Assembly (NCBI RefSeq): GCF_000143415.4
Contig: NW_003314389.1
Coordinates: 208,892 to 272,891, forward strand
From: Selaginella moellendorffii
Taxonomy: Eukaryota > Plantae > Lycopodiophyta
DNA length: 64,000 bases
Direction of reading: 5' to 3'
A program made the translations under genes and the position numbers. Every line of letters begins with the position of its first letter. Within the stretch, counting starts at the first letter, position 1. Positions 13,607 to 64,000 of the stretch are shown here, piece by piece. The notes beneath the pieces were generated by a model. The model saw nothing but the letters and a program-made list of their open reading frames with translations, made no database searches and had not been told where the DNA came from.

Positions 13607-16600
13607 CGGACTAGCCTTCTTTGCATCAATCTCTGGAACCTGGATGATGGACTGATCCATGAGATCACCAGAGTGCAAACACACTTTAAGTTTGCTCACA
13701 TGGAACGTTGGATGAATCTTCGAACTAACTGGCAAGTCCAAAGTGTATACAAGATCCCAATTTTCCAAGGCCCACAATACCATGGAGACAACTTAGCACT
13801 GCCACCTACTTTCAGAGCATTGTGCATTCAATAGCTTAAGGAAAACCTTATCACCAACTTTGTATTCTTGATAACAACGATGCTCATCAACCAATCTTTT
13901 GTCTCCCTCTTGAGCTTGCCTCATGTTCAATTTTGCCAACTCAAGCTTGTCTTGCATATCCTCTAGGAAATCATAAGCATGAGGAACCCAAATCAAAGCC
14001 AAATTTAAACTCACAAGAGACCTAGGCTCATAACCATATATCGCCATAAAGGGAGATATGCCAATAGTTGATTGATGAGCGCTATTGTGAGCAAACTGAA
14101 GAAAAGGCAAATACTTCTCCCATACTCCCTGTTGAGTCAAGTTTCCCACAAAAGACCTTAGCATATCTTCTAATAGCTGATTCATGCGCTTTGTTTGCCC
14201 ATCAGATTGTGGATGCTCACCACTACTCATGCTCAGCTTAGTCTCTAGCTTCTCAAAGACTGTTTGCCAAAACTTGGACATGAACTTGGGATCCCGATCA
14301 CTCACAATGTCACCCGGCAAACCATAGAGACTGAATAACCGGTCTACAAACAACTAAGCAAGTTCAGAAGCTTTTATCGTTGTCTTCACAAGGAAGAAGT
14401 GAGCCACCTTCGTCAAATGATCCACAACAACCCAAATAGTATCATTTCCTCAAAGGTTTTGAGCAAACCAGTGATAAAGTCCATTGAGATGCTATCCCAC
14501 TTATTCTTGGGTACACATAAAGGATGATAGAGGCCAGCGAACTTTTGATGATCAACTTTGACCGCCTAGCAAGTCAAACAACCATGTACGTACTTCTCAA
14601 CATCTAACTTCATCCCAGGCCAAAAGAAATGCCTCTTCACCAACATATACATTCTCAATACCCCCGGATGCCCAACACTTGGCACATCATGACACTAAAC
14701 CAAAATCCATTTGATGAGTTTGTCAACACAAGGAACCACTACACGTCCCTTCTTCACCAAGATTCCATCTCATATCTCGAATGACGCAAACTTGTCACCC
14801 TTTAAATCTGTAGAGGCGTCCCTCAACAAAACCTTCACACAAATATCAGTGATAAAGGAGTCGAAGTCAGTAAACTCGTTAAGCTCATCCAAGAGATCAC
14901 TGGATAGCTTCACAAACGAGATAGAATTTACCATCTTGGATAATGCATCAGCCACCTTATTGTCACCTCCATGCTTGTACTGGATCTTAATAAACATTTT
15001 CTACAGGAACTCTTGCTAACGAGCAAGGTAGCTTCGAAGATCCACATCTTATCATTCATTGACCCCTTCAGAAAAATCTTTGCTCTGATGTCCAACTTTA
15101 TGGCAACGAAAACAATTGCCCTCCACCTTATCCTTCTCTCGCTGGTCCAAACAAAGTTTCTTAGCCTCACTGCCATCTTCATGCTTCAAGCCACAATGGA
15201 ATAATGACTATTTCTTCCCTAAATATGAAGAGCTGGTCATCACATTGACTACTCCATAGACCATCTCGTTGACCAGAGTTGACTGAGTTGACTGATGGTT
15301 TGGACGAAAAGATTTGAGCCTTAGTGATAGCATTAGTCAATGTTGCTGGAAAATCCTTCTTGACCTTCTACTGCACATCCACTAAGCTTAATCCTTTGAT
15401 GAAACATTGCATCTTTAGCAGCTTATTATAGGTGCCCGTGAGACTAAAGCAAAGATCATGGAACTTCTGGGCATACGCATCCAAAGACAAAGTCCTCTGC
15501 CGGATCTCTAATAGCTGGTTCACGAGATCAACCTCTTCAAACTTCTTGACAAATGAAGCACGGAAAACCTTCATCAAATCAATCCAAGAAGTTGGCTTTG
15601 GATTAGCTTTGATGTAATTCTTCCACCACGAAGAAGCATGGCACATAAGCTTCGTCATAAAGAAATCTATCTTCACTGTATCCTCACAAGGATTGTGAGA
15701 CCAACAACTTTCCCACAATTCCAACTAAGAATCAACCTCTTAACTATCACAAACATCCGGTGATGATTTCCATTCCATGATACCATAAGCCTTGGCATGT
15801 TTGACATACCAATGGTAATCATGGACATGAGATTGGTGTAAGGAACCGACTCCCCGAGATGTCGTAGGCTAAAGGATCCCCAAAAGCTTGACCGAAATGA
15901 CAAAGAGTTTATCGGATGGGACCAAGTCGAGGATCGAGTCCAAGACTGACTCTAGGACCAAGTTCGAGATAGAGTCCGGAATCGAGTCCGAGACCGACTC
16001 GGGGACCGAGTTCGAGTCCGAGTTCGAGACCGAGTTCGAGACGGAGTCCGAGATCCGAAATCGGGTCCGAGACCGAGTCCGAGGTTGAGTCCGAGGTCGG
16101 GTCCGAGATCGGGTCCGAGATCGAGTCCGTGATCGAGTCCGAACCCGAATCCGAAGTCGGATCCGAAATCGGGTCCGAGATCGAGCCAGAGACTAAGTCC
16201 AAATACTAATACGGGTCAAGGGGTGAAAGCCCAAAGCGTGCGTCTCCCAGGGGGGGGGGGGGGGCTGCAGGGGGTTCCAAAAGTATAGTAGGGATAGTGA
16301 GGTCCAGGAACCAGTTTTGAAGGGACTCTCCAGTTGGGCTTCCAAACCGACTTGAGGTTGGGACTGGGACCGAGGGGCCTTGGGTGGGAGTGAGCATGGA
16401 CTTGGCTGGTGCCGGAGGGGCCATCCAAGGAAGTGCTCAAGAGCAGCTCCCACTCCCGAAAGGGAAACCGATTGCGGTGCTCTTGGCTCATGTGGAGTGG
16501 TGCCCCACTTGAGTACCATGCGGCTCATTGGTCCTCGCCCTTCCTAGGGGCTTGGGCCTTCCTTCGGGATGGAAGTGGGGGGCGAGAGGTACCCATACCG

Positions 16601-17127
16601 GGCCGCTAGGCCACGGTGTTTCACCCCGGCGTCCCGAAGCAAGTGTTGCACTCAAGACTTGGGATTTAGAGGGTCCCATGATCAAGTCTTGTGGTACCAA
16701 GGGATGTTAGGAACCTGGAAGCTTGGTGTGCTTGGCTGCTTGTGCTTGCGGGGAGTGTAGCCGAACCTTAAGTCCAGTCTAACCCGGGGAGGGGGATTGA
16801 GAGTGATTTGGGAATCCGTGGAAGGATGCTAACACTCCGTTGCTCGTGCAGTGAGTAGCTGAAACAAAGTAGGAGCTGGTACCATAGGCGAAAACCTTGG
16901 CAAGGGAACTTAGCAAAAGCCAAGGAAGTGTTGGACGGATAGACGAGGTAAGCTGACAAATTGGAAAGGAAAAATTTGTGGCTTACAATTTGGTATCGGA
17001 GCCTCTTCCTCAGTTCTAGAGAAGGATAGAGGCGGATTGCTGGGAGATGGCAAGGGCAGGATGTAAGCGAACCTAGGCAGAGACGGAACCTCCTCCAGAG
17101 CTGGAGCCTCCGGTCGAACAGGAGGCG

Positions 17128-19116
17128 ATGGATGAGGAATCCTTGCATGAGGAGGACTCCAGTGAGGCAACTTCCAAACAGGAGTCTGGTGGTGAGGTTC
17201 GGTCGTCCAAGGCTCGATTGGATGTTCTAGAAGGACAATTGGCACAGACCAATGCCCTGCTAGAGACTCTCATATGCAAGCTAAAGCGTGACGAGAAGCG
17301 GAAGAAAAAGCAAAAGACTGTGGATGCTGGTAGCGCAGAAGGTGTGGACCCTTCGGCAGGGACTGAGGCAAAACCAGACAAGGTCGAACAGACCGAAGTG
17401 GAATCGGTCCCTCAGGCAGTTCCCAAGTACAAACCAAAGCCCCCACCGGTCTTCAAGGGAGTGAACGACTATAAGGTGGTGGAGGATTGGTTCTACGATA
17501 TGGAGGACTACTTCCGAGCGTTGCGATTACCAAGCTCGGAGAAGGTCCCATGTGCAAAACCATACTTGGCAGATAATGCCAAGTCTTGGTGGAGAACGAC
17601 AGAGGCCAACGAAGGACCGGTGGCCACTTGGGAAATGATGAAGGCGAGGATCCGCGCAACTTACGTTCCTCCGAATGCTACTCTGCATCTAAGGGACGAG
17701 CTGAGTAGGCTGAAGCAGACCGGAACCATTCAGGAGTATGTGAATGGGTTTATGGCAAAGAGGATACTTGTCACGGACATGGGGGATATGGATGCATTCC
17801 ATGCCTTCATATCAGGTTTGCAAACCTGGGCTCGCGGCGAAGTAATGCGGTGGAACCCGACCAACTACAAAGAAGCGTTGGATGCGGCCATCAAGGTGCA
17901 TTTCAACGATAACCTGCGAAAGGGGAACACGACGGGGTTGGGATCCACGTTTAGCAAAGGGGCCAAACCAAGGGGAACGTTTAGCAGAGGGAAATTCAAG
18001 AAGAGTTTCTCTAAGAATGAGTCCTCGGGGTTTTGGAAAGGCAGATCCGGTGGCCAGCGAGCGAGTACGTGGGGGAGTCAGGCGAAAAGAGACAAACCCA
18101 CGGATAAGAAGGTCAAGTCATATAGCAGCGTGGGAAACAACGTATGCTACAACTGCGGTGAAGCGGGACACTTCTCGAGGGAATGTCCCTACCCGAAGAA
18201 GGCCAGAGCCAATATGGCCATCAAGTCGGGTGAAGTCCAAACAGAGGTATGTGATCCAGCCCCTAACTCAAAGTTACTCATTACACGAGCAACTTTGGTA
18301 GAGAGTCGTTCGCGACATCTACTAGCCCTCCGAGGGAAGCTCAGAGGTAGCTTTGTTAAAATCCTTATTGACACGGGTGCTTCGGATAATTTTGTGGCTG
18401 CAGACATAGTCCGGCAAGCCGGACTAACGATGCAGTGGCTAGGCGAACCAAGGACTATAGAGTTTGTTCAAGGTAGCCAAAGCACTGATGAGGTACTTCG
18501 ACAAGCGAGAGTCGAAGTGGGGACTTGGAAGGTGGACATGGACTTCACCGTGTTGGACATGGCGGGATTTGACGTGATCTTCGGAATGGACTGGTTCAAT
18601 CGATTCGTGGTAGCCCTGCATGGACAAGGTAGAAACCTTGTGGTACTGGCGAATGCCCAAGGAAGAAGATCTAGGGTGGAGGCCCAAGATCTAAAGGTAG
18701 GGCAAAGCAAGGCCAAAGATTCCTGCTTAAACCTGGTGTCCACGAGAGGACAACTCACTAAGGGAACTAATGCGGCCTTTTTGTGCTTACTCTCGGTGAA
18801 GAGTGACAGAAAGACAGGAATGGAAGAAGTACCTTTAGTGATCCAACGGGTGTTGGACCAATTCCAGAATACCATGCCGGAGGAGCTACCGGCGGGGCTG
18901 CCCCCAGCACGACCGATAGAACATAAGATTGAGCTGGTCGAGGGTGCTGAGGCAGTGGTTCGTCCCCCTTATCGTTTGAACGAAAAAGAACTCAAGGAGC
19001 CCAAGTGCCAACTAGAGGAGTTGGTGGACAAAGGGTATGTTAGGTTGAGCAAGTCGCCGTATGGGGCGCTGGTGTTATTTGTGAAAAAGAGCGACCATCG
19101 AATGTACATGAGTTGA
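17128..19116 (+). CDS. Element E Gag-protease plus start of RT
   Basis: Open 662-aa ORF with retrotransposon gag (LKQTGTIQEY), zinc knuckle CYNCGEAGHFSREC, protease LIDTGAS and RT N-terminus SKSPYGALVLFVKK. Confidence 0.9.
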   Translation: MDEESLHEEDSSEATSKQESGGEVRSSKARLDVLEGQLAQTNALLETLICKLKRDEKRKKKQKTVDAGSAEGVDPSAGTEAKPDKVEQTEVESVPQAVPKYKPKPPPVFKGVNDYKVVEDWFYDMEDYFRALRLPSSEKVPCAKPYLADNAKSWWRTTEANEGPVATWEMMKARIRATYVPPNATLHLRDELSRLKQTGTIQEYVNGFMAKRILVTDMGDMDAFHAFISGLQTWARGEVMRWNPTNYKEALDAAIKVHFNDNLRKGNTTGLGSTFSKGAKPRGTFSRGKFKKSFSKNESSGFWKGRSGGQRASTWGSQAKRDKPTDKKVKSYSSVGNNVCYNCGEAGHFSRECPYPKKARANMAIKSGEVQTEVCDPAPNSKLLITRATLVESRSRHLLALRGKLRGSFVKILIDTGASDNFVAADIVRQAGLTMQWLGEPRTIEFVQGSQSTDEVLRQARVEVGTWKVDMDFTVLDMAGFDVIFGMDWFNRFVVALHGQGRNLVVLANAQGRRSRVEAQDLKVGQSKAKDSCLNLVSTRGQLTKGTNAAFLCLLSVKSDRKTGMEEVPLVIQRVLDQFQNTMPEELPAGLPPARPIEHKIELVEGAEAVVRPPYRLNEKELKEPKCQLEELVDKGYVRLSKSPYGALVLFVKKSDHRMYMS

Positions 19117-21291
19117 GGGCGTTCCTGGGGCTATGCAACTACTATCGAAAGTTTATCAGACACTATTCGAGAGTAGCCCTGCCCTTAACGGACCAAACAG
19201 GAAAAGGGAAGATGGTATGGACAGCAGAATGCGAGGCGGCATTCGTCCACCTCAAAGGGAAGTTGAGGAAGGCTCCCGTATTGGCATTACCAGACTTTGG
19301 TAAGGACTTTGAGGTAGAAACGGATGCTTCGGACTTTGCGTTGGGTGCAGTTCTAAAGCAAGACAACCATCCGGTAGCGTTCTTCTCGAAGAAGCTGGAC
19401 AAGGCTCAACGGAAGTGGCCTGCCCACGAGAAGGAATTGTTTGCGGTGGTCAAGGCACTCAAGGAGTGGCGACACTACCTTGGGAGACACTTCAAGGTTT
19501 ACACGGACAATGTGGCAACGAAACACTTCTTGTCACAGCCCGACCTAAGAGGCAAACAAGGTCGGTGGGCCAATGCCTTGGCCGAGTTTGATTGCGAAAT
19601 TCTGTACAAGCCTGGGAAGAGCAACATCGTGGCGGATGCGCTAAGTCGAAAAGCGAGCTTGAAGTTGGCAATATCCAGCGCAACAGCAACCTTCTGGGAC
19701 GATGTGCGGACAGTATATGAGAACAATGGTCTAGCACAGGAAGTGTTGCTGAGGAATCTAGAGGCACGGGAAGCTCACCAGAGAGGTGAGCTGCCAACGG
19801 AAGAGAAAACGGGCTATGCAGAATGCAACGGACTCATTTATTACAAGCAAACGAGGGTGTATGTTCCAGAAGGGGAACTAAGGAAGGTGGCCTTAGAAGA
19901 GTGTCATGACGGACCTCTTGCGGGAAACAGTGGAGTGCCCAAGACGATGGGCTTACTCAAAAGGAAGTACCATTGGCCAGATATGGCTAAGGACGTCCAA
20001 GACTATGTAAAGACATGTCCAACATGTCAGCAAGTAAAAGCCGTGACTAAGGCTAGTGGGGGCTTGTTGCAAAGCATCCCAATTCCAGATCGCCCGTGGA
20101 AATGTCTTACGATGGACTTCATCACGGGACTCCCCCCAAGCGAGGGGTTTGATGCGATATTCGTGGTGGTGGACCAATTTTCGAAAATGGCACATTTCAT
20201 ACCCACCACAACAGAAGTGGATGCGGAAGGTGTGGCAAAGCTGTTCTTCGAACAAGTGGTTCGAGTGCGGGGAAGGCCGGAAGAGATTATCTCAGATCGA
20301 GATAAGATCTTCACTAGTAGGTTCTGGAGGACACTCCTAGAACAGTATCGCACAAAATTGAAATTCAGCACAGCCTATCACCCACAGACAGGTAATGGGT
20401 ATTAAGTCAAGATTGATGGCACTAACACTTCTTGACAGACAGACAAACGGAAAGGGTGAATAGGCAGCTGGAGGATTATTTGCGATGCTATGTCTCGGGA
20501 GACCAGACTGACTGGGTAAGTCATTTGGGACTTGCGGAAATGTGTTATAACAACTCACCACACTCAAGCATCGGGGTGAGTCCATGGGAAGTCATCAATG
20601 GGCGAGCTATTGAAGGTCCTGTGGAACTCGGCGTGGCCGAGTATCATGGAGAGTTACCCGCAGTGGAGGCATTCACGGCGGAAAGACTCAACATTTGGAA
20701 TCTAGTGAGGGATTCCTTGGAACGGGCTCAACAAAGGCAAACTAAGTACGCGAACCAGAAGCGTCGGGATGTGGAGTTCCAAGCTGGGGAGAAGGTGTGG
20801 CTGAACACTAAGAACCTCAGACTACCAAGTGGGATCAGCCGAAAGTTGACCCAAAGGTAAAGATGCATGTATTCCTGTAAATGAATTGATCTTGAGTTCC
20901 TTAAGTAGGTTCGCGGGGCCTTATGAAATTGAGGCACGAATCGGTAAAGTGGCTTACCGACTCCGACTTCCTCGAGAGATGGGGAAGATGCACCCAGTGT
21001 TCCACGTGGAACTTACTCAATCCGTACTTTGAGGATCCGCTTCGCAAGGACCAAGTGAGACCTTTACCTGAGGTTATCCAAGGGGAAGAGGAATACGAAG
21101 TCGAGGCCATCCTCAATGCGCGCAAGAGCAAGCGACAAGGACGCGAGGTGAGAGAGTTCCATGTGAAGTGGAAAGGATTTCCACACTGCGAAGCAACATG
21201 GGAACCGGAGGAGAACCTAGCGAACGCTCGAGAACTAGTGGAGGAATTTCTGCAAGGCAGAACTCTATGTACTTATGCAAAATTCAATTAA
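19113..21291 (+). CDS. Element E RNase H-integrase-chromodomain, split by introns 20392-20438 and 20857-20908 and one 1-bp frameshift near 21009
   Basis: RAFLGLCNYYR, ETDASDFALGAVL, zinc-binding region, MDFITGLP and ISDRD. Splicing restores YHPQTDRQTERVN and KLTQRFAGPY. Chromodomain YEVEAIL..VKWKGFPHCEATWEP. Confidence 0.85.
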
Positions 21292-23038
21292 AAATATCAA
21301 TTTGCAAAGTTGAGCAAGTGCAATATGTTGGGACCCGAAGGCGCGCCAAAGGTAAGCTAATTAGCATGGGTTGGATAGGTCGATCAGGCGTAGGGCACTA
21401 CGCCCGACTCCCCGCGGGGATGTCGAATCTGTAGACGTATTCTACGGAGGTTGGGTTCGAGTCCCAACCCCCTAGTAAAGCAAGGCTGGGTTCAAGTCCC
21501 GACCCCATACTAGGGCGTGGTGAGGTGAGGAGTATAGGGACACCTATATTCCGTTGTCATGGGCTCTTGGCCGGGGAGGCTAACTTAGGCACACCGCTAA
21601 GTGGGGGGATGCCCCCGGAGACATGGTCAACAAGTCGTAGGATAAAACGAGACGTTCGATGTGGGCATCGAACTTCTTCTATGGGTGGTGGAGTTGTAAG
21701 GAACCGACTCCCCGAGATGTCGTAGGCTAAAGGATCCCCAAAAGCTTGACCGAAATGACAAAGAGTTTATCGGATGGGACCAAGTTGAGGATCGAGTCCA
21801 AGACCGACTCTAGGACCGAGTTTGAGATAGAGTCCGGAATCGAGTCCGAGACTGACTCGGGGACCGAGTTCGAGTCCGAGTTCGAGACCGAGTTCGAGAC
21901 AGAGTCCGAGATCCGAAATCGGGTCCGAGACCGAGTCCGAGGTCGAGTCCGAGGTCGGGTCCGAGATCGGGTCCGAGATCGAGTCCGTGATCGAGTCCGA
22001 ACCCGAATCCGAAGTCGGATCCGAAATCGGGTCCGAGATCGAGCCAGAGACTAAGTCCAAATACTAATACGGGTCAAGGGGTGAAAGCCCAAAGCGTGCG
22101 TCTCCCAGGGGGAGGGGGGGGTGCAGGGGGTTCCAAAAGTATAGTAGGGATAGTGAGGTCCAGGAACCAGTTTTGAAGGGACTCTCCAGTTGGGCTTCCA
22201 AACCGACTTGAGGTTGGGACTGGGACTGGGACCGAGGGGCCTTGGGTGGGAGTGAGCATGGACTTGGCTGGTGCCGGAGGGGCTATCCAAGGAAGTGCTC
22301 AAGAGCAGCTCCCACTCCCGAAAGGGAAACCAATTGCGGTGCTCCCGGCTCATGTGGAGTGGTGCCCCACTTGAGTACCATGCGGCTCATTGGTCCTCGC
22401 CCTTCCTAGGGGCTTGGGCCTTCCTTCGGGATGGAAGTGGGGGGCGAGAGGTACCCATACTAGGCCGCTAGGCCACGGTGTTTCGCCCCGGCGTCCCGAA
22501 GCAAGTGTTGCACTCAAGACTTGGGATTTAGAGGGTCCCATGATCAAGTCTTGTGGTACCAAGGGATGTTAGAAACCTGGAAGCTTGGTGTGCTTGGCTG
22601 CTTGTGCTTGCGGGGAGTGTAGCCAAACCTTAAGTCCAGTCTAACCCGGGGAGGGGGATTGAGAGTGATTTGGGAATCCGTGGAAGGATGGCTAACACTC
22701 CGTTGCTCGTGCAGTGAGTAGCTGAAACCAAGTAGGAGCTGGTACCATAGGCGAAAACCTTGGCAAGGGAACTTAGCAAAAGCCAAGGCAGTGTTGGACG
22801 GATAGACGAGGTAAGCTGGCAAATTGGAAAGGAAAAATTTGTGGCTTACAATTGGTTCAACCCTTGAGGGTCCATGCGAAGCAAGAAATCCTTAATGAGA
22901 TTAATAGAATCCTTAACCTCCTTTATGTCGTTCTGAACCTCAGAAATCTGGCGTCCTTGCTGCACAACGACATCATCAAGAGTCTCTTCCACATCATCAT
23001 GGCTATCATCACTAACACTATACTCCTCATCAGGATCA

Positions 23039-23632
23039 TATAAGCTCCTGAGTTTGGACTTCTCAGGAGGTCACCCAGCCCAGTATTATTTAAACCCAAG
23101 GACGCTTAACCCCAAGTATCCCAAGACCCTTAACTGATTAGAAAAGGGGGTGCACTTTTATTCATGGGCCCTTTCCCTCTATATTTAAACCCCATGGACT
23201 GTCTCTCAAGTTGTTCTCTTTGGTTGCTTACAATCCACCACACTTCCCTGTAAGTTCACGTCCTCGTGAATGGAAGCTGAGATCTGCAGCTCTCCCGAGA
23301 GGCCCGCTCTCTTGACACCCTACCCCTCGGGTCGAGCCCAGCAGGAGCAAATTGGACCAGCTAGATGTCAATCAACATGTGGTGTGATTCCCTTAGCCAA
23401 CCAACAGAGTCGGACCTGAGACCTCTCTGATACCAAATGTAAGCTCCTGAGTTTGGACTTCTCGGGAGGTCACCCAGCCCAGTACTATTCAAACCCAAGG
23501 ACACTTAACCCCAAGTATCCTAAGACCCTTAACCGATTGGAAAAAGGGGGTGCACTTTTATTCATGGGCCCTTTCCCTTTATATTTAAACCCCATGGACT
23601 ATCTCTCAAGTCGTTCTCTTTGGTTGCTTATA
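23039..23632 (-). mobile_element. Complete Cassandra-like TRIM (5S rRNA-containing LTRs, non-coding)
   Basis: LTRs 23039-23232 and 23438-23632 with a 205-bp interior. Minus-strand PBS TGGTATCAGAG (tRNA-iMet) and PPT GGGAAGTGTGGTGGAT; TSD GATCA. 5S segments at 23056-23110 and 23455-23509. Confidence 0.9.
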
Positions 23633-24801: not shown

Positions 24802-26791
24802 CTTGCTCACCCACTATCACCAAAAGAACGTGTTGCTCCGATACCAATGAAACGAACAAGAGAGCAAACCCTAGGCCAACCTCCCAACCCTTAAAGTGTT
24901 ATGGCCTTAAATCCCACAGGCCATAGAATATTCTCAAAATATTCCTATGGTTCGTGTCACCAAGACCCTTAACCGATTGGAAAAGGGGTGCACTCTTGTT
25001 CATGGGCTCTTTCCCTCTATATTTAAACCCTTATGGATCACCTCTCGAGTTGTTCTCTTTGGTTGTTACACCGTTCTACCAAATCATTTGATTGTGGATG
25101 ATAAGCTCTTGTGAAAGTGTGGCGTATCACCACCAAGACGTCAAAACATGAAATGATTCAGCCATAAATGCGGGACTATTATCTGAAAGAATCCACTTTG
25201 GACAAGAATACTAGAACACCACTCGATTGAGGAGGAAGTATCTAACAGTAATTGCAGAGGCATTCGCAAAAGCATTAGTTTCCACTCAATGAGTCAAGTA
25301 GTCAGAAGCAATAATAACATACTCATTGCCAGCAGTCACCCGTGGAAAAGGTCCCATAAGATCAAACGCTATCAACTCAAACGAACAAATTACAATTGAC
25401 TCTAATCGTCCTTCAGCAGCACGAGGGGGAGTATTACAAGCTTGGCACCAAACGCAGCTACGCACACATCAGATAATATCACGTCGCATCTCCGGCCAAT
25501 AGAAAGACTTGCGCAACTTCTTGGTTACATGACGATGTCTTATATGCCCACATAGAATAGGAGAATCATGGTAGGCATGGAAAAACCGTGGAATAAAGAC
25601 AGAAGGCACCACCAGCCGTAAATGATCATTAGGATCCGTCCCCACAAAATAAAGAAGGTTGTCTTTAAAGCAATATTGAGAATGTATATGCCGGAAAGGC
25701 AAGTCATCAGCAAGTGATGCAAGATTCTCAAACCCATTTTGAAGCATTTGAATCCACGGCTCAATCTTTTGAGACTCGCGAACCTCATTAAGAGAAGGTA
25801 GATTTTGCTCTACACCTTGTCGACACTGAACGTCAAGTACAGCCAATGCCGATGGTAGAGAATCCTTATCTAGAAAATCCACAGATGCTGGAATAATAGG
25901 TTCGTCAAAAACATGAGAAGAGAGTGGAGATGGAAGAGGAGCTCGAGAAAAGACATTAGCATTAGCCATAGAACTCCTTGGGCAATAAACGACATCAAAA
26001 TCATATATCTCAAGCTTCAAAGCCCACCAAGTAGTATGACCAACCAGGTTTTTCCGCTTTAATAATGAAGTAATAGCAACATGATCACCTTCAAGAAACA
26101 TCCGAGAACCGTAGATATGCATGAAGTTTCTCAAAACCCCAGACTGCTGCTAAACACTCCTTCTCTATCGTGGAGTAGTTCATCTCTACTAGTTGTAATG
26201 TACGGCTTATATACACAATAGGATGGCACTGATCAGGCACACTCGAGCTCTCTTGCATCAACACACCTCCAAGACCAATGTTAGAAACATCCACATGCAA
26301 AATAAAAGGTCAAGTGTAGTCAGGATATGTCAAAACCAAAGGAGTCATCAATAGCTTTTTGAGATCCACGAATGCCCACTCATAATCCAGAGACCAAATG
26401 AAAGATGACATTGATGACTTCAGCAATGCTCACAATGGTGTAGTGTGATCAGAAAGATGATCCACAAAACAACCGAGATACTACACCTTGCCCAAGAAGC
26501 GTTGCACATCATTCACACACTTCGGAGTAGGGAACTTTAGAATAGTCACAAGTTTGTTAGGATCAACTTGCAAACCCTCACAAGAAATACAGTACCCAAG
26601 ATAAGTTGTGTCCTTGGACCCAAACACGCACTTTGACCGCTTCAACATTAAATCAATGTCGCATAGCCGATCCAACACTTTACAAACATCACAAACATGC
26701 TCCTCCCATGTCCCCTTCAAGTGGATTAAGACCTCATCAATGAAGTCAGTAGTCACCTCCAGCATATCACAAAGAACCTCGTCCATCATCC

Positions 26792-29700
26792 TGTGAGACA
26801 CAAATCCCTAAGCCCCAAAGTGCAGCTGAAAGGGTGCCACGTGGTAGTGGCTGAACCAAAAGCCAAACGAGCGTAACACGTTTGGACTAAAAGGCTCTGA
26901 CTTGAAAGGTCGAGAGTTTGAGTGGAACTCCCAACGGAGTGCTCAAGGAACGAGCATAAAGCGAGCAATAAGCGAGGCTCCAAAAATGGACCCAAAAGAA
27001 CCAACACATGACACGTGGAAGTGTTCGAGATGGAGTCCGAGATGGACCCGAGTTGGAGTCTGAGATGGAGTCCGAGGTGGACCCGAAATGGAGTCTGAGA
27101 TGGACCCGAGTTGGAGTCCGAAGTGGAGTCCGAGATGGAGTTCGAGGTGGACCCGAGATGAAGTCCGAGACGGAGTCTGAGATGGACCCAAGTTGGAGTC
27201 CGAGGTGGAGTCTGAGATGGAGTCCGAGATGGACCGAGATGGAGTCCGAGAAAGACTCGAGATGGAGTCTGAGATGGACCCAAGATGGAGTTCGAGATGG
27301 AGTCCGAGATGGACTGAGACAGAGTCCGAGATGGAGTCCAAGATGGACCTGAGATGGAATCCGAGATGGAGTCCGAGAAGGACCCGAGATGGAGTCCGAG
27401 GTCGAGACTGAGACCAGGACTGAGACCGAGACCGGGACCGAGACCGAGACCGAGACTGGGATCGAGACCGAGACCGAGACTGGGATCGAGACCGAGACCG
27501 AGGCTGAGGCTAAGACCCAGCCCGACCCAGCACAATTTGGTATCGGAGCTGTTCCTTAGTCCAACTTTTATTGGTGCTGAAGTATATCACCACTAGGTTG
27601 GCATCGGAGGGTCCTAGGATGGGCTTGCTTTTGAGGAGTAGCAAGTCGGGAAGACATGGCTCTCCACTACAGCTCACGTGTGAACTTGTAAGCAAGGTGG
27701 TGGATAGAAAAAGGCCAATGATGGAACGACTTTTGGATCTTGGGAACAGTGTAAGGCTTTCCTCATTGAGTGAGGATGTGATTCAGATGAGCGTTTGATA
27801 CAGCAAACGGGCTAACATAGTTGTGGTAAACAACTATAGTTGGGATCACGGGAAAGATGCAGACTCCAAAACAATAAAGGAGTCAGAAGATTACCCTCAT
27901 ATAGTTGATGTTCCCAGAAGAAGGAAACTTTGGCCCAGAGTTGGGTGCAAACACTATGGTGTGGTGCTAACGGATAGTTAGCATGAGGAACAACCATATT
28001 AATCTTGGCAAAGACCTAAACACTAATGAGTAGTGTTATAAGGATAGGCTCGTGGGGCCAATGGTGTGGAGACACCAAATGTGCCAAGGTGTAATACCTT
28101 GAGGTTATGTTGGTGGGTTCATAAGAACCCCTTGCCAAAGGGAATCCTAACGGAAATGGGAATGGCATAACCTAAGCTGGAAGGCATGTGGTAGAGTGTG
28201 GTGACTAAAACAATTATGAAGGTGTGGAAGCATTAGCAATGAGTTATAGGACTTGACAACTATGAAGCAACTAAGCAAAAGGTGCAAGATAATTTGTTAA
28301 ACTAGTAGAAAGTAACTACCCAAGACTTCTTAATGGCATAAGGAAGTTAGATATACCCTTATAGGGGATAAATTGTTTATGTTGCGATATAGTAAGTCAA
28401 TGTTGAAAAGAGGAATGCCCATTGTCAAAAAGGCCATCATTAGGAGACCCAAACACTCTAGAACACCCAAAGGTGGTGTTTGATGTCGCGAGGGCAATAG
28501 GTAAGGCCCAAGGGACTAAGTCCCTAGTGAATGATGGATAGAAGGTGCTATCTAAATGTCCAAGGTTGCAAAGACGGAAGAAGTCCGTCTATCCGAATCG
28601 GATAAAGCCAAAAATGGAATTTTGGCAAGGCTAGTGATGGGCATATAAAGGCCCATATATATTAACGTTAATCTTGGTATGTAGTATTATAAGGTGAGCA
28701 TACCGAGATTGAGGAACCACTCCCTAGGCTGTCAAGTAGGTTCATCCCCAACAATACTTACTAAGGCATGGTAAAAAGTGCAAAGCTATCCTCCTAGTTT
28801 CGAGGTGAATAACCGAAGGGAATGTGTGAAGCCAAAAGCAAGTAGTAAGGGGATAGAACCAAACCATAGGAATCAAAGAGCATAACCAAGGGTGGTTATG
28901 TCAGTTGGGAGTGGAGAATCAAGTGGGTGCTTGAGTATGTTGTTACTAGCAATCGTGGTGCCATGAAGAGTCTAAAGCATGAAATTGTCCATGCTAGACT
29001 ATATGGCAATTGGAAAGCTTGCGAAAGGAGAGGCATTAGCAAGCTAAAGGGCAGAGTTCCTTCAAGTTCCCAAAGACGATTCTAGGTAGCTTAGTACCTA
29101 GAAAGGCCAAGTGTAAATGGTTCCTAGAGTGCACAAAATCAGAGTGGCGCAGCAGAAGCGTGGTCTTGAAGCTGGCCATGAGGCAAGGCTATCAAGGTTG
29201 GGGAAGTAGTTCCCGAGTGTTCAAAGAGAGGGCTTTGAAAGAAAGTCGATGGTTAAGGACTTTCATGCTTATGCATGAACCATGTTACGGTGGCCGGATA
29301 AATTGCTAAGTGAGATTGGCAAGTCAGGGGGACAAATCCCCTAGTTGAAGGTGCTAACTTCAAAAAGGGTGGGCCATGGGGCCGAGCATGGAGGAGTTCA
29401 TGCATGATCACAGACTTGTCAAGTGAGAGGACTTAGCAGTGCGAGGGAACTAGGTTCCTAAGCTGTGATCTATAGTGCGCTTTAAGTATAAATTGGCACA
29501 CCGGCGTGGGGAGTCACACCAGGCATCTAGGGTGATGCCGTCCGTAGATGCATATACGAAGGTTGGGTTCGAGTCCCAACCCTCTAGTGCTTGGGTTCGA
29601 GTCCCAAATCACTAAGGAGTGGTGATGGTTTGGAATATGAGGACACTCATATTTCGATGGTCATGGACTCTCAGTGAGGAGACTGGTTTGGGCACACTGC

Positions 29701-31436
29701 CAAGCGAGGGATGCGTCGGAGTCGTGATGCACGGTTAGATTGCTTAGAGTGAAAGCTCAGCATATCTAACTTGAACACTTTGGTGCAAAGGGCACCAAGG
29801 ACGTGGTGAATGAGATGGGGACACCCAGTCTCAGTTGCTATGGATCCTTGGCCAGAAGGGCTAGCTTGGGTGCATTGCCAAGTGTGGGGGATGCCCCCGG
29901 GGTCATAGTCAACAATTTAAAAGGGTCTGGAAGACCTAGTTCCTATTGGTAGACCTGTTAAAGGGTTAAGATGAGATCACGAGGTGATCTTGTGGCTAAA
30001 CAAATACAAAGTCTTTGTTTGGGTTAAGGAATATGATTCCCAGTTCAAAGTGTTGATTTGAACTATTGATAATGGTCTGGCTTGGTCGAGGTGACCAAGT
30101 GGGAAGGACACATAAAGGGAAATCAGTTGTGCCAATACAATGGTATAGTAAGTCCAAGAAAGTAGTCTCGGGGAGAGACCCATGGGAGGGTCGCAAAGTA
30201 GGGCTGTGGACGAAGCCCGCAACAGAAATTGCTAAAGAGACCTACTAAGGGTGAGCATCCGTTGGACTTAGCAAAGTAGAGCCAGTGCTATGGAACCAAA
30301 AAGATACCTCAAGAATAGAGGTAGTGATCCTACGTTGCTCAGTGCAACGATCAATAGATAAAAGCAAAAGACTAGTGGCCAAGTGTGGGCCATAAAGTTC
30401 ATTGGAAGGAATCCAAATAGCAAAGTTAGGCATGGAACACTAATGTGTTGGATGCTAACGGATTGTGAGAAAGGAAGTGTGCTTCAAAGGATGGATTCCC
30501 AAATGCTCCAAGTTGGCAAAGGTGAAAGCTTCAAGGAAGGGAGCGGCGAAGTAACCAAAGGATAGGGCTGTGGATAGCTCTAGCACAACTTACGATGGCT
30601 GAAACTTGGTGCCAAAAGTGGCATAAAATAGAAAGGACAATGGCACCCTCAAGTGGGGAGCTTCCTCTTCGAGAAGTCAAAATTAAAAGTTCCAAGGTGA
30701 ATTGGTTATGTCAATAGAAGTTGGGACTACTCGAGAATGAGTAGTGGAGTTGAGTTAGAGAAGGTGTCTCTAACTGGTTTAGCGAGAATTGAACCAATAA
30801 AAGGGAGCAAACCATGCCAAGTGGCCGAATGAGTCTCTATGTTGGAGAGACTATGTCCCTTAGAGGATGGACAAGGCATGGTGAGCCTTCGGGGTCAAAC
30901 CATAGACAAATATTGGCTGGGTGCCAAGGATGGAAATGGTAATACTTGCGAGTGTTACTTTATAAAAGGGTTTACCGTTCGATGAGCACATCGAACTTCA
31001 TCTATGGGTGGTGGAGTTGTGAGACACAAATCCCTAAGCCCCAAAGTGGAGCCGAAAGGGTGTCACGTGGTAGTGGCTGAAGCAAAAGCCAAACGAGCGT
31101 AACATGTTTGGACTAAAAGGCTCAGACTTGAAAGGTCGAGAGCGGGAGTGGAACTCCCAACGGAGTTCTCAAGGAACGAGCATGAAGCAAGCAATAAGTG
31201 AGGCTCCAAAAAGGGACCCAAAAGGATCAACACATGACACGTGGGTGTCAGTTTTAAGACTGGACACGTGGAGCACTTGGACCAAGTGCAAGGGCTGAGT
31301 GGCATGGATGCCATTCTCGGGACTAGCAAGTCCCAAGTCCTGAATTGGACTTAAGGAGGTTGTGAATGAGACTCCTCCAAGTGGTCAGAGGTGTGGTTAA
31401 GTGACTAAAGTAGAATGGAAAATTTAGTCGCTCACA
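26792..31436 (+). mobile_element. Non-autonomous LARD-like element F1 inserted in the RT of element A
   Basis: LTR remnants 26792-27534 and 31018-31436, PBS TGGTATCGGAGC after 27534, PPT ATGGGTGGTGGAGT, TSD CATCC/CATCT; no intact ORF. Confidence 0.85.
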
Positions 31437-34400
31437 CATCTGTTGGAAAGTGGCTAGAGCATTGTTCAAACTAAACGGCATCACTAAGAACTTGTTCAAA
31501 CCAAATGGTGTACAAAATGCAGTTTTAGGAATATCTTCTTTGGCCATCGGTACTTGCTAGTACCAAAAAACAAGATCGAGCTTGGTGAACTAACGACTTT
31601 GCCCTAGATGATCCAAGAGATCAGCAGTGTGAGGAAGAGGATACACATTTGGGATCGTCACTTCGTTTAACGGACGATAGTTAATGCAGAAATGAATACT
31701 TCTATCTGGCTTCGTCACAAGATGAGGCTCATGTGCCCAAGGATTTCACAACTTCTGAATAACACCCTTCTCCAACATCTTCTTGACGTTTGCATGTAAA
31801 ATCTTGATCTCCTTGGGTGACCGACAACGAATAGGAACCTTGATTGGACGAGCATCCCCGGTTGGAATCAGATGACGTGTGGCAATCTTGGCCCCAAACA
31901 ATAGGTCAAATTCAAAGAGATCAAAATACTCCTTCATGAGCCTGTCAACCGCTACAACACAAAGAGTGTTGGAGGGATCAGAAAAGGGAAGAGTAGAACA
32001 AGACGGAAATATAGGAGGAAATAGTGGGGAAACAAAAGTAATAGAAGCAGAGGTAGAAGTAAAGGGACGAAGAGGTACGAAAGTGAGAAGAATGAATAAA
32101 ACATAAGGAAGTATGAGACAAGGGGGAGAAACCTCAAAGTCACATTTAGCATGATGCGTTGCAACCAATCTATACCAAGAATGAAGTCAAAATTTTGACT
32201 CGGCACCAACTACAATGACTGCAACTCAAGCTTGAGATCACCCACACGCACAACCAGGTCTACCTCATCCTGTGCACATGCATGTGTACGGCCATTGCCA
32301 TAAAGAATGAAAACTGGTTTCACCACATGACACAAGTGTAGACGGCAACGTGTAGCAACAGGTCGAGCAATAGAAGATAAACTCAAACTTATATCAACCA
32401 ACACAGAGAGAATAATAGGAGACCTCTTGTTATAAAAACGAGCTTGGAAAGTAAACATTGGATGAACCGGTGCCGAGTGAACCCTTTGATGATACTCTCG
32501 AAAGAAAGATGGAGGGGTCACTAACTTATTTGCGCAAGGTCCCTCTGTTACTTGTGCGACTTGTCATTTCCTGGATGCATCTCAGTGTCCAAACCTTCCA
32601 CCACAGCAACACCAATGGGATGTTGTTGACACTAGGGTCTCCACCTAGGAAATGGAGGTTGTCAATCCGGAAAACGCCGACAACGCCAATAAGTATGACC
32701 AACTTCATCACACGCCTAGCAACGAATATCACGGCCATGACCACGTCCTCGCCCTTGTCCTTGGACTCGAGCAGCAGCAACATCAACCTCTATTAGAACA
32801 GGACCATCACCCATAGGAAGTGGAGTTAAAGGACATGTAGCGAGAAGTGGAAGAGGCGACATCTCATAATGTTGTGCCAAGTGAAGAGCATTGTCAAGGG
32901 TGGCAGGAGCAAGTGCATGCACAAGTCCGACAAGATCTTGACAAAGTGCTGACCACAACATTCCTAGCTTGATCCACTCCGATATATTTGGCTCCACACG
33001 AAGTAAAAGACTTCAAAAACGAACGCCAAATTGCATCACTAACTCAGATGGCCCTTGGCGAAGACGATGTAATTGTTGGAAGGCATCATCACAGTCGTTG
33101 GGATGTCCGAAGGCGCATTTGAAGATGTTCGGGAGAACACTCCAATCCCCACGAGTGGCTGCACTCAAACCATTGTACCACTGCAATGACATCCCTTGGA
33201 GACATGTGGGAAACTCATGCAAACGTTAAGCATCATCCCAAGAATGATATATGAGAATCACCGTGAAATGATCGAACTAATGGTACACATCATCCCTAGG
33301 ATTCCCGCGAAAGAACTCTGGCCGAACGCGAGGATTGGCACCAAGAGCAGAAGGAGTGGTACCACGTGCCATGAATGCTGCCATCAACTGAGTTTGGTTG
33401 TTCAATTGCAAGCACATAACATCAAGTAATTGTACCAACTGCTGCTCTAGAGTCAAAGGAGGAGATTATAGATCTGCCATGAAGAGGAACGAAAAAAAAA
33501 TAGCAAAAGAAAAGAAATGACAAAAGGCTAGAAGGAAATGGTAGATCTAGACAATATAAAAAGCTAGATCTAAACCAAAATCCTGAAAGGAAAGAACAAA
33601 AGAAAGGAAATGGAAAATGTTAGATTTAGACGATGCAAAAGCTAAATCTAAATCAAAATCCCAAATCCAAGCACTCCTCAGGGACAATCAAAGTTGCCAC
33701 TCACCTCCACTAATGTGAGTGCTTGAAATATGGAAAAGGAATATAGAAAATGTGCATATCAATTAGTCTAAAAACCCTAGCTTATATATAGGAGTGAGTG
33801 GTCCAAATTAAAACCAATCTAATGGCTACAAAAATTTGTTATAAAACAGCTGTTATCCGGCTACAAAACAAATATATTTTTAAAATTTTTATATTTGATT
33901 TTTTATAAAATAAAAATATTAATACACCTGTAAAACCTTTCTAACCAGAATATAAGCTACCAATAGATCAAGAGTATGTAACAGATTTTCTAACTTATAA
34001 TATATAGGATAACTACTATGAAAATTAAATCACAAAGAGACAAAAATCTTGAGAAAGAAAAATTTAGAATAAAAAGAAGGAAATTTTATTGAAATAAAAA
34101 TTAAAAATATTTGTTTATATAAACTTCTCATCAAAAGTGAGTTAGGTTAAAAAGTAGTAGAACAACTCCAAAAATAAATATCTAGATTGTAAGCAAAAAA
34201 GTTGACAATTATAAACTACAGTTCAACATGATTATAATTAGGTAATATCATACTAGAAGTTATGATTTCAAAATCTTTAAGAAATTTTGAAACTTATAAA
34301 AAGATTCTGCAAGATTGTCTCTTGCCAATTGATATTAAATCATACATAACTAAAAATCTAGAAATAATTAATTTAAATTTAAAATTACTATTAAATTAAT

Positions 34401-38900: not shown

Positions 38901-40712
38901 AATTAGGTCTTCCCGACCTTACTAAGTTGTTGACTATAACCCCGGGGGCATCCCCACACTTGGCGGTGCGCCCAAGCTAGCCCTTCCAGCCAAGGATCCA
39001 TAGCAACTGAGACTGGGTGTCCCCATCTCATTCACCACGTCCTTGGTGCCTTTTGCACCAAAGTGTTCAAGTTAGATATGCCGAGCTTTCACTCTAAGCA
39101 ATCTAACCATGCATCACGACTCCGGGGCATCCCCTGCTTGGCGGTGTGCCCAAGCCAATCTCCTCATTGAGAGTCCATGACCACCGAAATATGAGTGTCC
39201 TCATATTCCAAACCATCACCACGCCCTAGCGATTTGGGACTCGAACCCAAGCACTAGAGGGTCGGGACTCGAACCCAACCTCCGTATATGCATCTACGGA
39301 CGGCATCACCCAGGATGCCTGGCGTGACTCCCCACGCCGGTGCACCAACTTATACTCAAAGCGTGCTATAGATCACAACTTAGGAACCTAGTTCCTCCAC
39401 ATTGCCAAGTCCTCTCACTTGACAAGTCTGTGATCATGCATGGACTCCTCCATGCTTGGCCCCATGGCCCACCCTTTTTGAAGTTATCACCTTCAACTAG
39501 GGTATTTCTTCCCCTGACTTGCCAATCTCGCTTTGGCAAAGTCCTCTGACCACTGTAACATGGTTCCAGCACAAGCGTGAAAGCCCTTGATCATCGACTT
39601 TCGTTCAAAGCCCTCTCTTTGAACACTTGGGAACTACTTCCCTAACCTTGATAGCCTTGCCTCATGGCAAGTTTCAAGACCACGCTTCTGCTGCGCCACT
39701 CTGATTTTGCGCGTGTTTTGAACCATTTACACTTGGCCTTTCTAGGTACTAAGCTACCTAGAATCATCTTTGGGAACCTTGAAGGAACTTTGTCCCTTAG
39801 CTTGCTAAGGCCTCCCTTTTTGCAAGCTTTCCAATTACCATATAGTCTAACATGGACAATTCTATATTTTAGACTCTCCATGGCATCACAGTTGCTAGCG
39901 GCAACACCCTTGAGCCCCCACTTGATTCTCCACTCCCAGCTGGCATAACCAACCTTGGTTATGCCCTTCAATTCCTATGGTTTGGTTCTACCCCCATACT
40001 TCTTGCTTTTGGCTTCACTTGGCCTCGGTCTCGGTCTCGGTCCCGGTCTCGGTCTCGACCTCGGACTCCATCTCGGGTCCTTCTCGGACTCCATCTCGGG
40101 CTCCGTCTTGGTCCATCTCGAACTCCATCTCGGGCTCCGTCTCGGTCCATCTCGGACTCCATCTCGGGTCCATCTTGGACTCCGTCTCGGTCCATCTCGG
40201 ACTCCGTCTCGGTCCATCTCGGGTCCATCTCGGACTCCGTCTCGGTCCACCTTGGACTCCATCTCGGACTCCATCTCGAGTCCATCTTGGACTCCATCTC
40301 GGACTCCATCTCGGGTCCATCTCGGACTCCGTCTTGGTCCACCTCGGACTCCACTTCGGGTCCATCTCGGACTCCATATCGGACTCCATCTCGGACTCCA
40401 CTTCGGACTCCATATCGGACCCCACTTCGGGTCCATCTCGGACTCCACTTCGGGTCCATCTCGGACTCCATCTTGGACACTTCCACGTGTCATGTGTTGG
40501 TCCTTTTTGGGTCCCTTTTTGGAGCCTCGCTTATTGCTCGCTTTGTGCTTGTTCCTCGAGCACGTTGTTGGGAGTTCCACTCCCACTCTCGACCTTCCAA
40601 GTCCGAGCTTTTAATCCAAACGTGTTACACTCGTTTGGGCTTTCGCTTCGGCCACTACCACGTGGCACCCTTTCCAGCTCCACTTTAGGGCCTAGGGATT
40701 TCGTGTCTCACA
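35915..40712 (-). mobile_element. Non-autonomous element F2 with full 1.85-kb LTR (35915-37767) and deleted second LTR (about 40021-40712)
   Basis: TSD TCCAG/TCTAG; interior 37768-40020 is the reverse-complement homologue of 28840-31017. Confidence 0.85.
36914..37530. repeat. CpG-rich 6/11/12-bp satellite (GAGATGGAGTCC, GAGACC) inside F and E LTRs
   Basis: Related arrays at 15930-16200, 21790-22055, 27025-27510, 40021-40480, 44020-44400 and 61390-61520. Confidence 0.9.
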
Positions 40713-61384: not shown

Positions 61385-62412
61385 TTCTTGGAGGAGTCCG
61401 AGATGGAGCCCAAGGTTGAGTTTAAGATGGAGATTGAGACCAGAACTGAGACCAAGAACGAGAACGAGTTTGAGTTTGAGTTTGAGTCCACGTCTGAATT
61501 CGAGTCCAAGTCTGAGTCCAAGGGTGAAAGCCCAAAGCAATTATTTGCCAGATCCTGGGGGGTTTGGTGAGCTCCAAAAGGATAGTAGTGGGAGGACTCC
61601 AGTGGAACCAGTTTGGCTAAAAAAGGTTAATGTGACCAAGGAAGGTTATACTTATATGGTGGGTGATGATATAACCATTGAGGAGTCTAAGGCTAAAATG
61701 AACATGAACGGATAAGTGGGGTAATTTAGTGAAGTGTTCAAGAGCTGGCTATAACTCCCCTGGGAGATTGAATGGTTGATGCTCCCAATCCAAGTGTGGG
61801 TGGCACTACCTACTTGGATATCTGGAGTGGCTCATCATAACCTTGCGCTAGCCACATGGCTAGGGCACCCAGAGGCAGAAGGTAGGGAGAGTACCTACAA
61901 GGATACAGTCATGTGGCAAGAAAGTCTCAAAGGTCAATGGGACTTAGTGGTTAGGCCTTTCACCTAGTGGTGATGTTGGTGAGCACAACTATGGATGGAA
62001 AAGGACTTGATGGGGATTGAAGAAGCGATTTTGGGGAAGGGTGTTCCCCATATCTTTGAGCATTCTAAGGATGCTAAGGTGTAGTCTTGGGATGACCACT
62101 CAGAGGGCCCAATGTATGAAAGACAAGACTATAGTATGGGTGGTTTTGGACTACCTATGAGACAAAGGTTAATAGACATAGCCATAGGACATAGTAATAG
62201 ATTGATATATCAATGGTACTTTTGAGTGTCTATTGTGGATCGGACACATGGAGCACATGGACCAAGTGTAAAGGTTGAGTGGCATAAATGCCATTTATGG
62301 GGCTAGTAAGTCCTCAAGTTGGAAATAAGACTTATGGAGGTTGTAAGTGAGACTCCTTCAAGTGGTCAATGGTTAAGTGACAAAAATGGAATGGAAAATT
62401 TAATCACTTACA
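61385..62412 (+). mobile_element. Diverged 3' part of an F-family LTR
   Basis: Collinear with the reverse complement of 35915-37080; ends GGAAAATTTAATCACTTACA. Confidence 0.8.
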
Positions 62413-64000
62413 AAATTGTTATTACCATATGACTTGACTCAATACTTAATACTAGTTTATAGATGATAAGATATGATGAATTTTAATTTGGTATGATACT
62501 ACTTCAAGAGTGTTCTCCAGAACTTATTAGTGAATATCTTATCTTAATCTGAGATAATTTCTTTTGGCCTTCCCTAAATACAAACCATTTTTTCAAAGAA
62601 TAATGTTGCCATACCTTCCACATCAATTTCCATTGTGTTGGGTATTAAATATATCATTTTTGAAAATTGATCTACCACCATAAATATAGCATCAAACCCC
62701 TCACTTGAGAAGAGTTCCATAATAAAGTTCATTGTAGGACATTTCCATAGACAATCAAGCCCCCACTTGCATTAGTCATGGCCTTTACTTGCTGACATGT
62801 TGAGCATATATTTATATAGTCCTATACATCCTATCTCAAAGTCATTTGTTTTTACTTCAAAATCTTTATTAAAGTCTAGTAAAACTAATATGAAAGCCTT
62901 CTTCAACCTTCCTTTCAAGTGGATAAATGTTGTTTTGTATCCTGTTATCCATACTATCTTCCCTTTCCCATTTTACATTAAGGGGTGAGCAACTCTGAAT
63001 TTTATAGCCTTAGGAATGCCCTTAATGCATATATATTTGATGGTTACACCCATTTCTAGATTGTTTGTACTTTCTCAGAGTCCATTTTGAGCCTGTGCTT
63101 TACCCATTACATACCTAACAAATTTTACCTTTTGTTGAGGAAAGTGATATTTGCTCTCTTTAGTGTACAACTTGTGTTCTTTTAGTTTCTCAAACACTTT
63201 TGTCAAATGCTCCTCTAGGGTCTTGCTATAAATTAGGATATCATCAATATAGATGACTAAAAAATGATTTATATAGGGTATAAAGATAAAGTTCATAAGT
63301 GCTAATAATATTGCCGACACTTTATATAGCTTAAAGAGTATCACTATAGACTCAAAGCTTTCATACCTTATTTGACACGTTATCTTTTCAACATCTTCCT
63401 ATACTACCTTGATCTAGTACTATCATCATGACCTTAGGTCAATTTAAGAGAAGTATCTTAGTTTTCCTAACTTATCAAATAGATCCTCAATCCTTCATAA
63501 AGGGTACTTATTTGTTTTTGTATACTTGTTGAGCAACCAATAGTCTATGCACATACCTATAGACCCATCATTATTTTTCACAAATAACATTAAGCTTTAT
63601 ATGATGAATTGCTCAATGTAATATACCTTTTATCAACCAACTCCTTAAGTTAACATTTAAGTTCTTTGAGCTCTTTTTCATTCAAGTGATAAAGGGTATG
63701 AACCATTACTTTAGCACCCTCAACCAACATAATCTTATGTTCTATCAATCAAGCAGAGGTAATCCCACCAGCAAGTCATTTCAAAATTAGTCCAACATCT
63801 ATTGAATCATGAAAGGCACTTCTTTTGTTTCCATTTTTTATCGCTTCTCATAAAGAGTAAACATAAAAATGCCACTTTAATTCTTTTAGTGAATTGTCTT
63901 CTTGTGGATACTAGATTTAAGCAAAAGTGTTTGGACTTACTTTGCCTTATCTTTAGATCCTTGGTCTTCCAACTTAGATAATTCTCCAAGGGCATTTACT
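62413..64000 (-). mobile_element. Old decayed copy of family E retaining the RT core and the first integrase intron
   Basis: DLKIRQSKSKHFCLNLVSTRRQFTK matches E DLKVGQSKAKDSCLNLVSTRGQLTK. RT YIDDILIYSKT; the integrase piece is collinear with about 20040-20431. Confidence 0.85.

Follow-up and report, generated by a model that had tools for sequence, protein, structure and literature searches.

That introns are lost during retrotransposition has long served as classic proof that the process runs through RNA. In a 64,000-nucleotide stretch of the Selaginella moellendorffii genome (hereafter the window), an LTR retrotransposon carries two short intron-like inserts within its integrase gene. The locus raises the question of whether these inserts are spliced introns and, if so, how a gene that passes through RNA could have gained and kept them.

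A chromovirus with two inserts in its integrase

The element occupies 15837-22850 of the window, on the + strand like all of its features described here, and is flanked by a 5-bp target-site duplication, ATTGG (left copy 15832..15836, right copy 22851..22855). Both LTRs run from TGTAA to TTACA, the 5′ LTR with 12-nt tandem units at 15837..16987 and the 3′ LTR at 21695..22850, with a short purine-rich tract ahead of the latter (21683..21693). Directly after the 5′ LTR lies a primer-binding site, TGGTATCGGAGC (16991..17002), which we take to be of the initiator tRNA-Met type; no tRNA gene was found within the 64-kb window. Gag (capsid and CCHC knuckle), protease and the start of reverse transcriptase (RT) share a single frame at 17047..19116 (Pfam PF03732, PF00098, PF08284), of which 17077-19116 is open from gag through protease into the RT start. 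The RT thumb, RNase H, and the integrase HHCC and core domains up to the first insert follow at 19119..20391 (PF17919, PF17917, PF17921, PF00665), then an integrase exon B with the catalytic Glu and C-terminal part (20439..20856), and an exon C with the GPY/F motif and a chromodomain (20909..21291; PF00385, E 4e-17). By its sequence the element is a chromovirus-type Ty3/gypsy element, with TG..CA LTRs and a target-site duplication, the order gag-PR-RT-RH-IN, and a C-terminal chromodomain.

The first insert (20392..20438, 47 nt, CAG/GTAATG..TTGACAG/AC, slashes marking the borders) separates the second catalytic Asp from the Glu, and the second (20857..20908, 52 nt, AAG/GTAAAG..AAGTAG/GT) lies just ahead of the GPY/F motif. 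An earlier reading made from the DNA letters alone (the sequence-only reading) had proposed both as spliceosomal introns, and on re-check its positions, lengths and GT..AG ends proved exact. The inserts break the frame as it had stated: neither length is divisible by 3, and a frame read into the inserts meets a stop at 20403 and at 20858. Their removal restores the integrase, with 36 residues from the second Asp to the Glu across junction 1, which is the D-35-E spacing, and the alignment to intronless homologues falls into three collinear blocks, interrupted at the two inserts. The GC content of the inserts is 38% and 33%, versus 50-53% in the coding parts, and their size is that of host introns, two of which, in a pyruvate kinase gene at 52670-54299 (+), measure 52 and 45 nt. 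Candidate branch sites, judged by their letters, are CTAAC at -17 in intron 1 and TTGAT at -23 in intron 2; folding of the two inserts gave no notable structure.

The copy in the window is a dead element. About 0.52 kb of the RT core is gone at 19089..19090, the frame is interrupted by a stop at 17074-17076 and shifted near 21008, and the integrase motif that directly follows intron 1 has a non-conserved residue. At the RT-core junction, homologue P0021 aligns over 1-123 and then 294-721, and contigs from two sequencing runs (X15 and X1, described below) show loose ends. Sequence of the RT core continues past the X15 loose ends, and a second, decayed copy of the family (62400..64000, - strand, 71-73% identical) retains it. 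We considered whether the missing RT core held an additional intron and find this unlikely, with 526 nt in the decayed genomic copy at this place and about as many in the overhangs of the RNA-like contigs (76 + 450). Between the two LTRs of the window copy there are 18 transitions and 2 transversions (K2P 1.8%), corresponding to ~0.7 million years at a rate of 1.3e-8 per site and year. The description of the element as recently inserted holds only in a loose sense.

Splicing and selection across the family

We compared seven sequencing runs, of 24 matching runs from one organism. X15 and X16 (two samples of one study) and X17 (a second study) are RNA by our guess, X23 and X24 are confirmed RNA libraries, X1 is a deep DNA run, and X4 is a small run from another sample. 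One X15 contig (record 12, 2500 nt) matches 19089-20386, 20434-20854 and 20907-21238, three pieces that abut directly in the contig. In an X16 contig (1083 nt), 20386 is joined to 20434, skipping 47 nt with GT..AG ends, and 20854 to 20907, skipping 52 nt with GT..AG ends. The sequence-only reading had stated that a lack of spliced reads would refute it, and these exact skips go in its favour. The integrase introns are present in DNA copies and precisely absent from these RNA-like contigs, whose RNA label is a guess. Neither joint occurred in X1 among 8050 contigs over 20300-21000, where the full list of other joints comprises 12, at depths of 2-262, nor in X4, whose 29 contigs read through both inserts.

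Together with two further skips described in the next section, all 4 skips seen in X15 can be placed at canonical GT..AG ends, a placement that a random skip of 40-200 nt in the element allowed in 1981 of 200000 trials (1%); all four introns have U2-type GT..AG ends in consensus context. These data bear on the possibility that the inserts arose by misassembly or as single insertion events, with GT..AG ends by chance. Short direct repeats, as are usual for insertions, flank both inserts (GACAG around intron 1, AGGT around intron 2). Set against this are the presence of the inserts in two independent runs and in the decayed second copy, and the canonical placement of every skip, and we give this explanation next to no weight. 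We conclude that the integrase inserts are almost certainly spliced introns.

A different account of the intron-free contigs is a processed retrocopy in the plants of one study, with the intron-bearing copies not being spliced today. The guessed RNA status of the runs would allow this, and one variant of the X16 contig, at 20831, is absent from X1, so that X1 is compatible with an intron-free genomic copy private to that study's plants. The two confirmed RNA libraries, of each of which ~12% was read, likewise gave 65 and 25 reads and no joint, at an integrase depth of at most ~1.7, which is too low to inform; these reads lie mostly on a diverged LTR with unrelated flanks. The retrocopy account is opposed by the lack of any precise-loss joint in the X1 and X4 contigs named above, and by X17. 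This run (RNA by our guess) retains intron 1 and both edges of intron 2, and it shares with the X16 spliced contig two rare variants that X1 lacks entirely or almost so; a single small subfamily thus contains forms with and without the introns. At 20563, 20566 and 20821, where 97-99% of X1 depth differs, the RNA-like contigs have the alleles of the window, and they are therefore not random DNA carry-over. The X16 spliced contig and the intron-bearing copy in the window are unlike at 8 of 602 letters, which places the contig within the intron-bearing family, so that a retrocopy would itself be a product of splicing. With selection on exons B and C acting across the intron-bearing majority (below), we consider a retrocopy very unlikely.

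The inserts are not peculiar to the window copy, so that the other condition under which the sequence-only reading would have been refuted also goes in its favour. Summed X1 depth is flat, at 0.8-1.0 million over the inserts and 0.68-1.19 million in full flank bins (a measure that is not copy number); the 8050 DNA contigs hold no precise-loss joint; and the decayed copy, 73% identical, still has a homologue of intron 1, at which it ends. In that homologue, 33 of 46 insert letters match, with 69 of 92 in the flank, a score reached by 0 of 5000 shuffles.

Variation behind intron 1 indicates that the interrupted gene is in use. Exons behind intron 1 hold 23 of the 27 variants found (16 common in X1 and 7 rare), and 15 of the 16 common ones change a third codon position, in two genomic frames, without changing the amino acid (p 9e-7, against an expectation of 0.34 for transitions); among the rare ones, 2 of 7 are of this kind. 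No GT or AG is hit by a variant at ≥30% of depth. Purifying selection therefore acts on the part of integrase that can be reached only through splicing, a result that backs the earlier claim that integrase needs spliced mRNA. The same data speak to whether the family might be non-autonomous for integrase, with the inserts having broken the gene, another, intron-free family supplying the protein, and splicing being a by-product. The several lesions of the window copy would suit such a family, as would the unrelated, insert-free chromovirus-like element that adjoins it. The excess of synonymous changes, the open exon B, the strong chromodomain match and the absence of common variants at splice sites all run counter to it, and it appears extremely unlikely.

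Related elements from metagenomes (48-55% identity) lack the inserts: among 81 loci, 78 cover site 1 and 67 cover site 2, and 0 carry an insert at either. The introns are therefore likely gains in the studied lineage, and the border repeats GACAG and AGGT would fit insertion with a small duplication. Homologues whose match ends shortly past the HPQT motif were rejected as candidate intron-bearing relatives, since the 45 listed out of 80 carry on with the normal motif. Six broken alignments proved to be frameshifts or deletions rather than insertions. The nearest proteins found are only 45-55% identical to the studied element. We found no close relatives, with a best identity of 45-52% among the top matches listed, at most 50% among the best 150 representatives, nothing at E 1e-25 among longer proteins, 46% for one locus of a viral collection and 48-55% for 80 metagenome loci.

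A leader intron and a proposed split between mRNA and genomic RNA

The two skips that add to those of the sequence-only reading come from RNA-side evidence only, each from one contig of one run. The first, in X15 record 10, defines a leader intron of 66 nt (16948..17013, GAG/GTAAGC...CCTCTTCCTCAG/TT), which covers the last 40 bases of the LTR (to its end at 16987) and the whole primer-binding site at 16991-17002. The second, in X15 record 11, defines an alternative gag/protease intron of 157 nt (18247..18403, GAG/GTATGT...GGCTGCAG/AC). It lies in phase 0 within open coding sequence and covers the DTG motif of the protease; once it is removed, the new frame stops in the second codon past the junction, leaving Gag only. 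The contig with this skip runs on into RT.

Reverse transcription of LTR elements requires the primer-binding site and the U5 end. An RNA that has lost the leader intron has neither, and so cannot be reverse-transcribed. On this basis, the explanation that best accounts for the locus as a whole, and that we think probably correct, is that integrase is made from spliced mRNA only, while the same splicing likely removes the primer site and thereby bars back-copying. Three classes of RNA would be expected. Fully spliced RNA, with the leader, gag/protease and integrase introns all out, would encode Gag only. A rarer class that keeps the gag/protease intron and loses the integrase introns would encode full Gag-Pol; we infer this class, and no contig of that kind was among the 4 X15 records. 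Unspliced RNA would keep the primer-binding site and serve as template, its own frame stopping in intron 1 before the catalytic Glu. The sequence-only interpretation is supported as regards the need of integrase for spliced mRNA; the packaged genome would then stay unspliced, and splicing may act as a switch on transposition.

How firmly such an arrangement would protect the introns depends on how the four splices combine. If splicing of all four introns were coupled, as we assume, no intron-free copies would arise, in agreement with what the DNA shows. An RNA that retained the leader and was spliced in the integrase would still yield them, so the lock needs coupled splicing. The four skips sit on three separate contigs; their co-occurrence on one molecule would be part of the model, as would the protection of the introns through loss of the primer site.

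Folding predicts a 14-bp hairpin (16948..16986) between the leader splice donor and the LTR end, with a pair probability of ~0.99 for most pairs. Its z is -5.0 over 47 nt, a segment selected once the fold was known, and -0.3 over 91 nt, and folding of the whole leader is not unusual (z -1.5). Such a hairpin could hide the leader donor and favour the unspliced class; a stem beside the primer site may also simply serve priming. The strongest form of the model is that the leader intron locks every spliced RNA out of replication, the donor hairpin switches between mRNA and genomic RNA, and the lock let the integrase gain and keep introns. We put this forward tentatively, as a possibility somewhat short of even.

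The introns could also be real, and spliced mRNA needed for integrase, with the barrier to back-copying lying elsewhere: in an internal poly(A) site, in an uncapped template pool as in BARE, or in selective packaging, the leader intron being incidental or secondary. The spliced contigs end at 21238 (X15) and ~21248 (X16), just before an AT-rich block past the stop codon (21250..21327, with AATTAA at 21286) and some 440 nt ahead of the purine tract, and this block might, as a very weak hint, be an internal poly(A) site. BARE copies only an uncapped, unspliced RNA pool (PMC3735527), and EVADE couples splicing to early termination (PMC5580714). Contigs, however, cannot show RNA ends, and both runs belong to one study, which puts the coincidence of ends below even a weak hint; and the leader skip removes the primer site outright, with no extra assumption for the molecules that carry it. 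We judge a barrier of another kind unlikely, though less so than the other alternatives weighed here, and return to the reading in which splicing itself removes the primer site.

A high-copy family with introns in the integrase core indicates that the intron-loss rule can be broken stably, and the leader intron points to a simple cause, namely that the primer site is itself intronic. If this is true, the family would offer a natural system in which mRNA and genomic RNA are kept apart with no accessory protein, would add a Gag-only splice that Ty3/gypsy reached by convergence, and would show that a gene with an RNA stage in its cycle can gain introns. Under the lock reading, integrase would only ever be made from RNA that is not genome, and a plant LTR retrotransposon would run like a complex retrovirus. 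Pipelines based on open reading frames would class all copies of such a family as broken.

Known systems and neighbouring DNA

The sequence-only reading had summarized splicing in plant LTR elements as mostly controlling the Gag/Pol ratio or removing a spacer. This understates Ogre, for which the REXdb classification paper reports splicing as needed to translate RT-RH-INT (PMC6317226); the principle therefore has a plant precedent. Ogre likewise keeps a spliceosomal intron in genomic copies and splices it from a subset of transcripts for downstream pol translation (PMC6317226). It differs in having one spacer of ~274 bp between two ORFs, whereas here two introns of ~50 nt lie within a chromovirus integrase, one of them between catalytic residues. 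Protease and the RT start share one frame in our element, with no Ogre-type intron between PROT and RT ORFs.

The Ty1/copia elements EVADE and BARE1 splice at the gag/protease border and reach a stop just after Gag (PMC5580714, PMC3735527), and by its coordinates the intron at 18247-18403 does likewise. BARE also keeps translated and replicated RNA pools separate (PMC3735527). These are copia elements that make Gag-Pol from unspliced RNA, whereas the unspliced RNA of our element cannot encode a whole integrase. The EVADE report found no such conserved splicing in Arabidopsis Ty3/gypsy elements (PMC5580714), another paper describes spliced LTR-contained RNAs of maize elements (PMC13192763), and a 2025 review names Ogre and EVADE as the only exceptions to intron-free plant LTR elements (PMC12786077).

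Beyond plants, foamy viruses (Spumaretrovirinae) have their major donor in the R region of the 5′ LTR, so that their spliced RNAs would skip the primer site; they make Pol from spliced mRNA, and folding of the donor region is regulatory (PMC5035957, PMC7828637). They differ in splicing over gag to an uninterrupted pol, whereas our element has host-sized introns inside pol and a leader intron of 66 nt. The likeness would be one of analogy and implies no common descent. In Cer1, a Ty3/gypsy element of C. elegans, multiple consensus splice sites must be skipped to produce genomic RNA, but the spliced RNA encodes an accessory protein, and Gag and Pol come from unspliced RNA (PMC3315495). Penelope-like elements are also retroelements that keep spliceosomal introns (PMC4209133), but are non-LTR elements without integrase or primer-binding site. 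GingerRoot, another conceivable source of an intron-bearing integrase, was dismissed, since it lacks the HHCC, GPY and chromodomain features of the studied element (PMC6839031).

By analogy, the split between mRNA and genomic RNA would work like those of Ogre, BARE1 and foamy viruses, in a layout that we did not find in print. No report of an intron within a retrotransposon integrase, or over the primer site of a plant element, appeared in the full-text literature searched, a scope outside which most subscription papers and Repbase lie, so that prior annotation is possible; the REXdb element collection may contain the family.

A quick tree of 53 rows, built with no reference elements, groups the window copy with Sesamum proteins and an unnamed clade (SH-aLRT 96). 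The Sesamum-containing group may be Galadriel. By structure the chromovirus fits Galadriel or the unclassified clubmoss chromoviruses of REXdb: the tRNA-Met site, single gag-pol frame, chromodomain and 4-5 bp duplication are features of these groups, all present here but common to other clades (PMC6317226). The Tcn1 clade fits less well, with self-priming and no tRNA site in 83% of its members and overlapping or separate gag/protease frames in 72%, where our element has a tRNA-Met-type site and one frame (PMC6317226). The lineage table of that source lists a split inside integrase for no lineage (PMC6317226).

The studied element is nested in an opposite-strand gypsy-type element (13620-15836 and 22851-23440, - strand), whose integrase has no inserts at either site. 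A second LTR family lies at 26792-31250 (+), 36900-40715 (-) and 43786-44400. Its LTRs of ~740 bp are rich in 12-nt tandem units like those of the studied LTR, and its inner part shares 72-75% with the 3′ untranslated region of the studied element (21416-21633). At 27538 it has a primer site, after which an acceptor-like TGTTCCTTAG stands at nearly the spacing of the leader acceptor; we saw no nearby donor. This family is possibly a non-autonomous partner of the studied element. The 12-nt arrays in the LTRs of the studied element (15920-16200 and 21780-22060) form open, low-complexity Arg/Asp/Ser-Glu frames on both strands, and similar arrays occur in the LTRs of the second family.

X23, X24 and X15 record 9 contain a transcript of a diverged LTR piece with unrelated flanks, matching 16400-16813, which is probably a host transcript with an LTR fragment. 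A few X23 reads on the 3′ untranslated region (21356-21690) have an orientation opposite to that of the LTR reads and possibly represent antisense RNA. Elsewhere in the window, a more distant gypsy family is represented by decayed pol genes at 25074-26840, 31437-31949 and 42025-45524 (-), which nested insertions have broken up. The best match of the host pyruvate kinase exon is in the lycophyte Diphasiastrum (78%, among proteins of 148-473 residues), which marks the host as a land plant, and introns as short as the two in this gene suggest Selaginella. Exon pieces at 57712-58212 (-) look like parts of a flagellar dynein intermediate chain with WD repeats, a likeness that would be in keeping with a plant whose sperm are motile.
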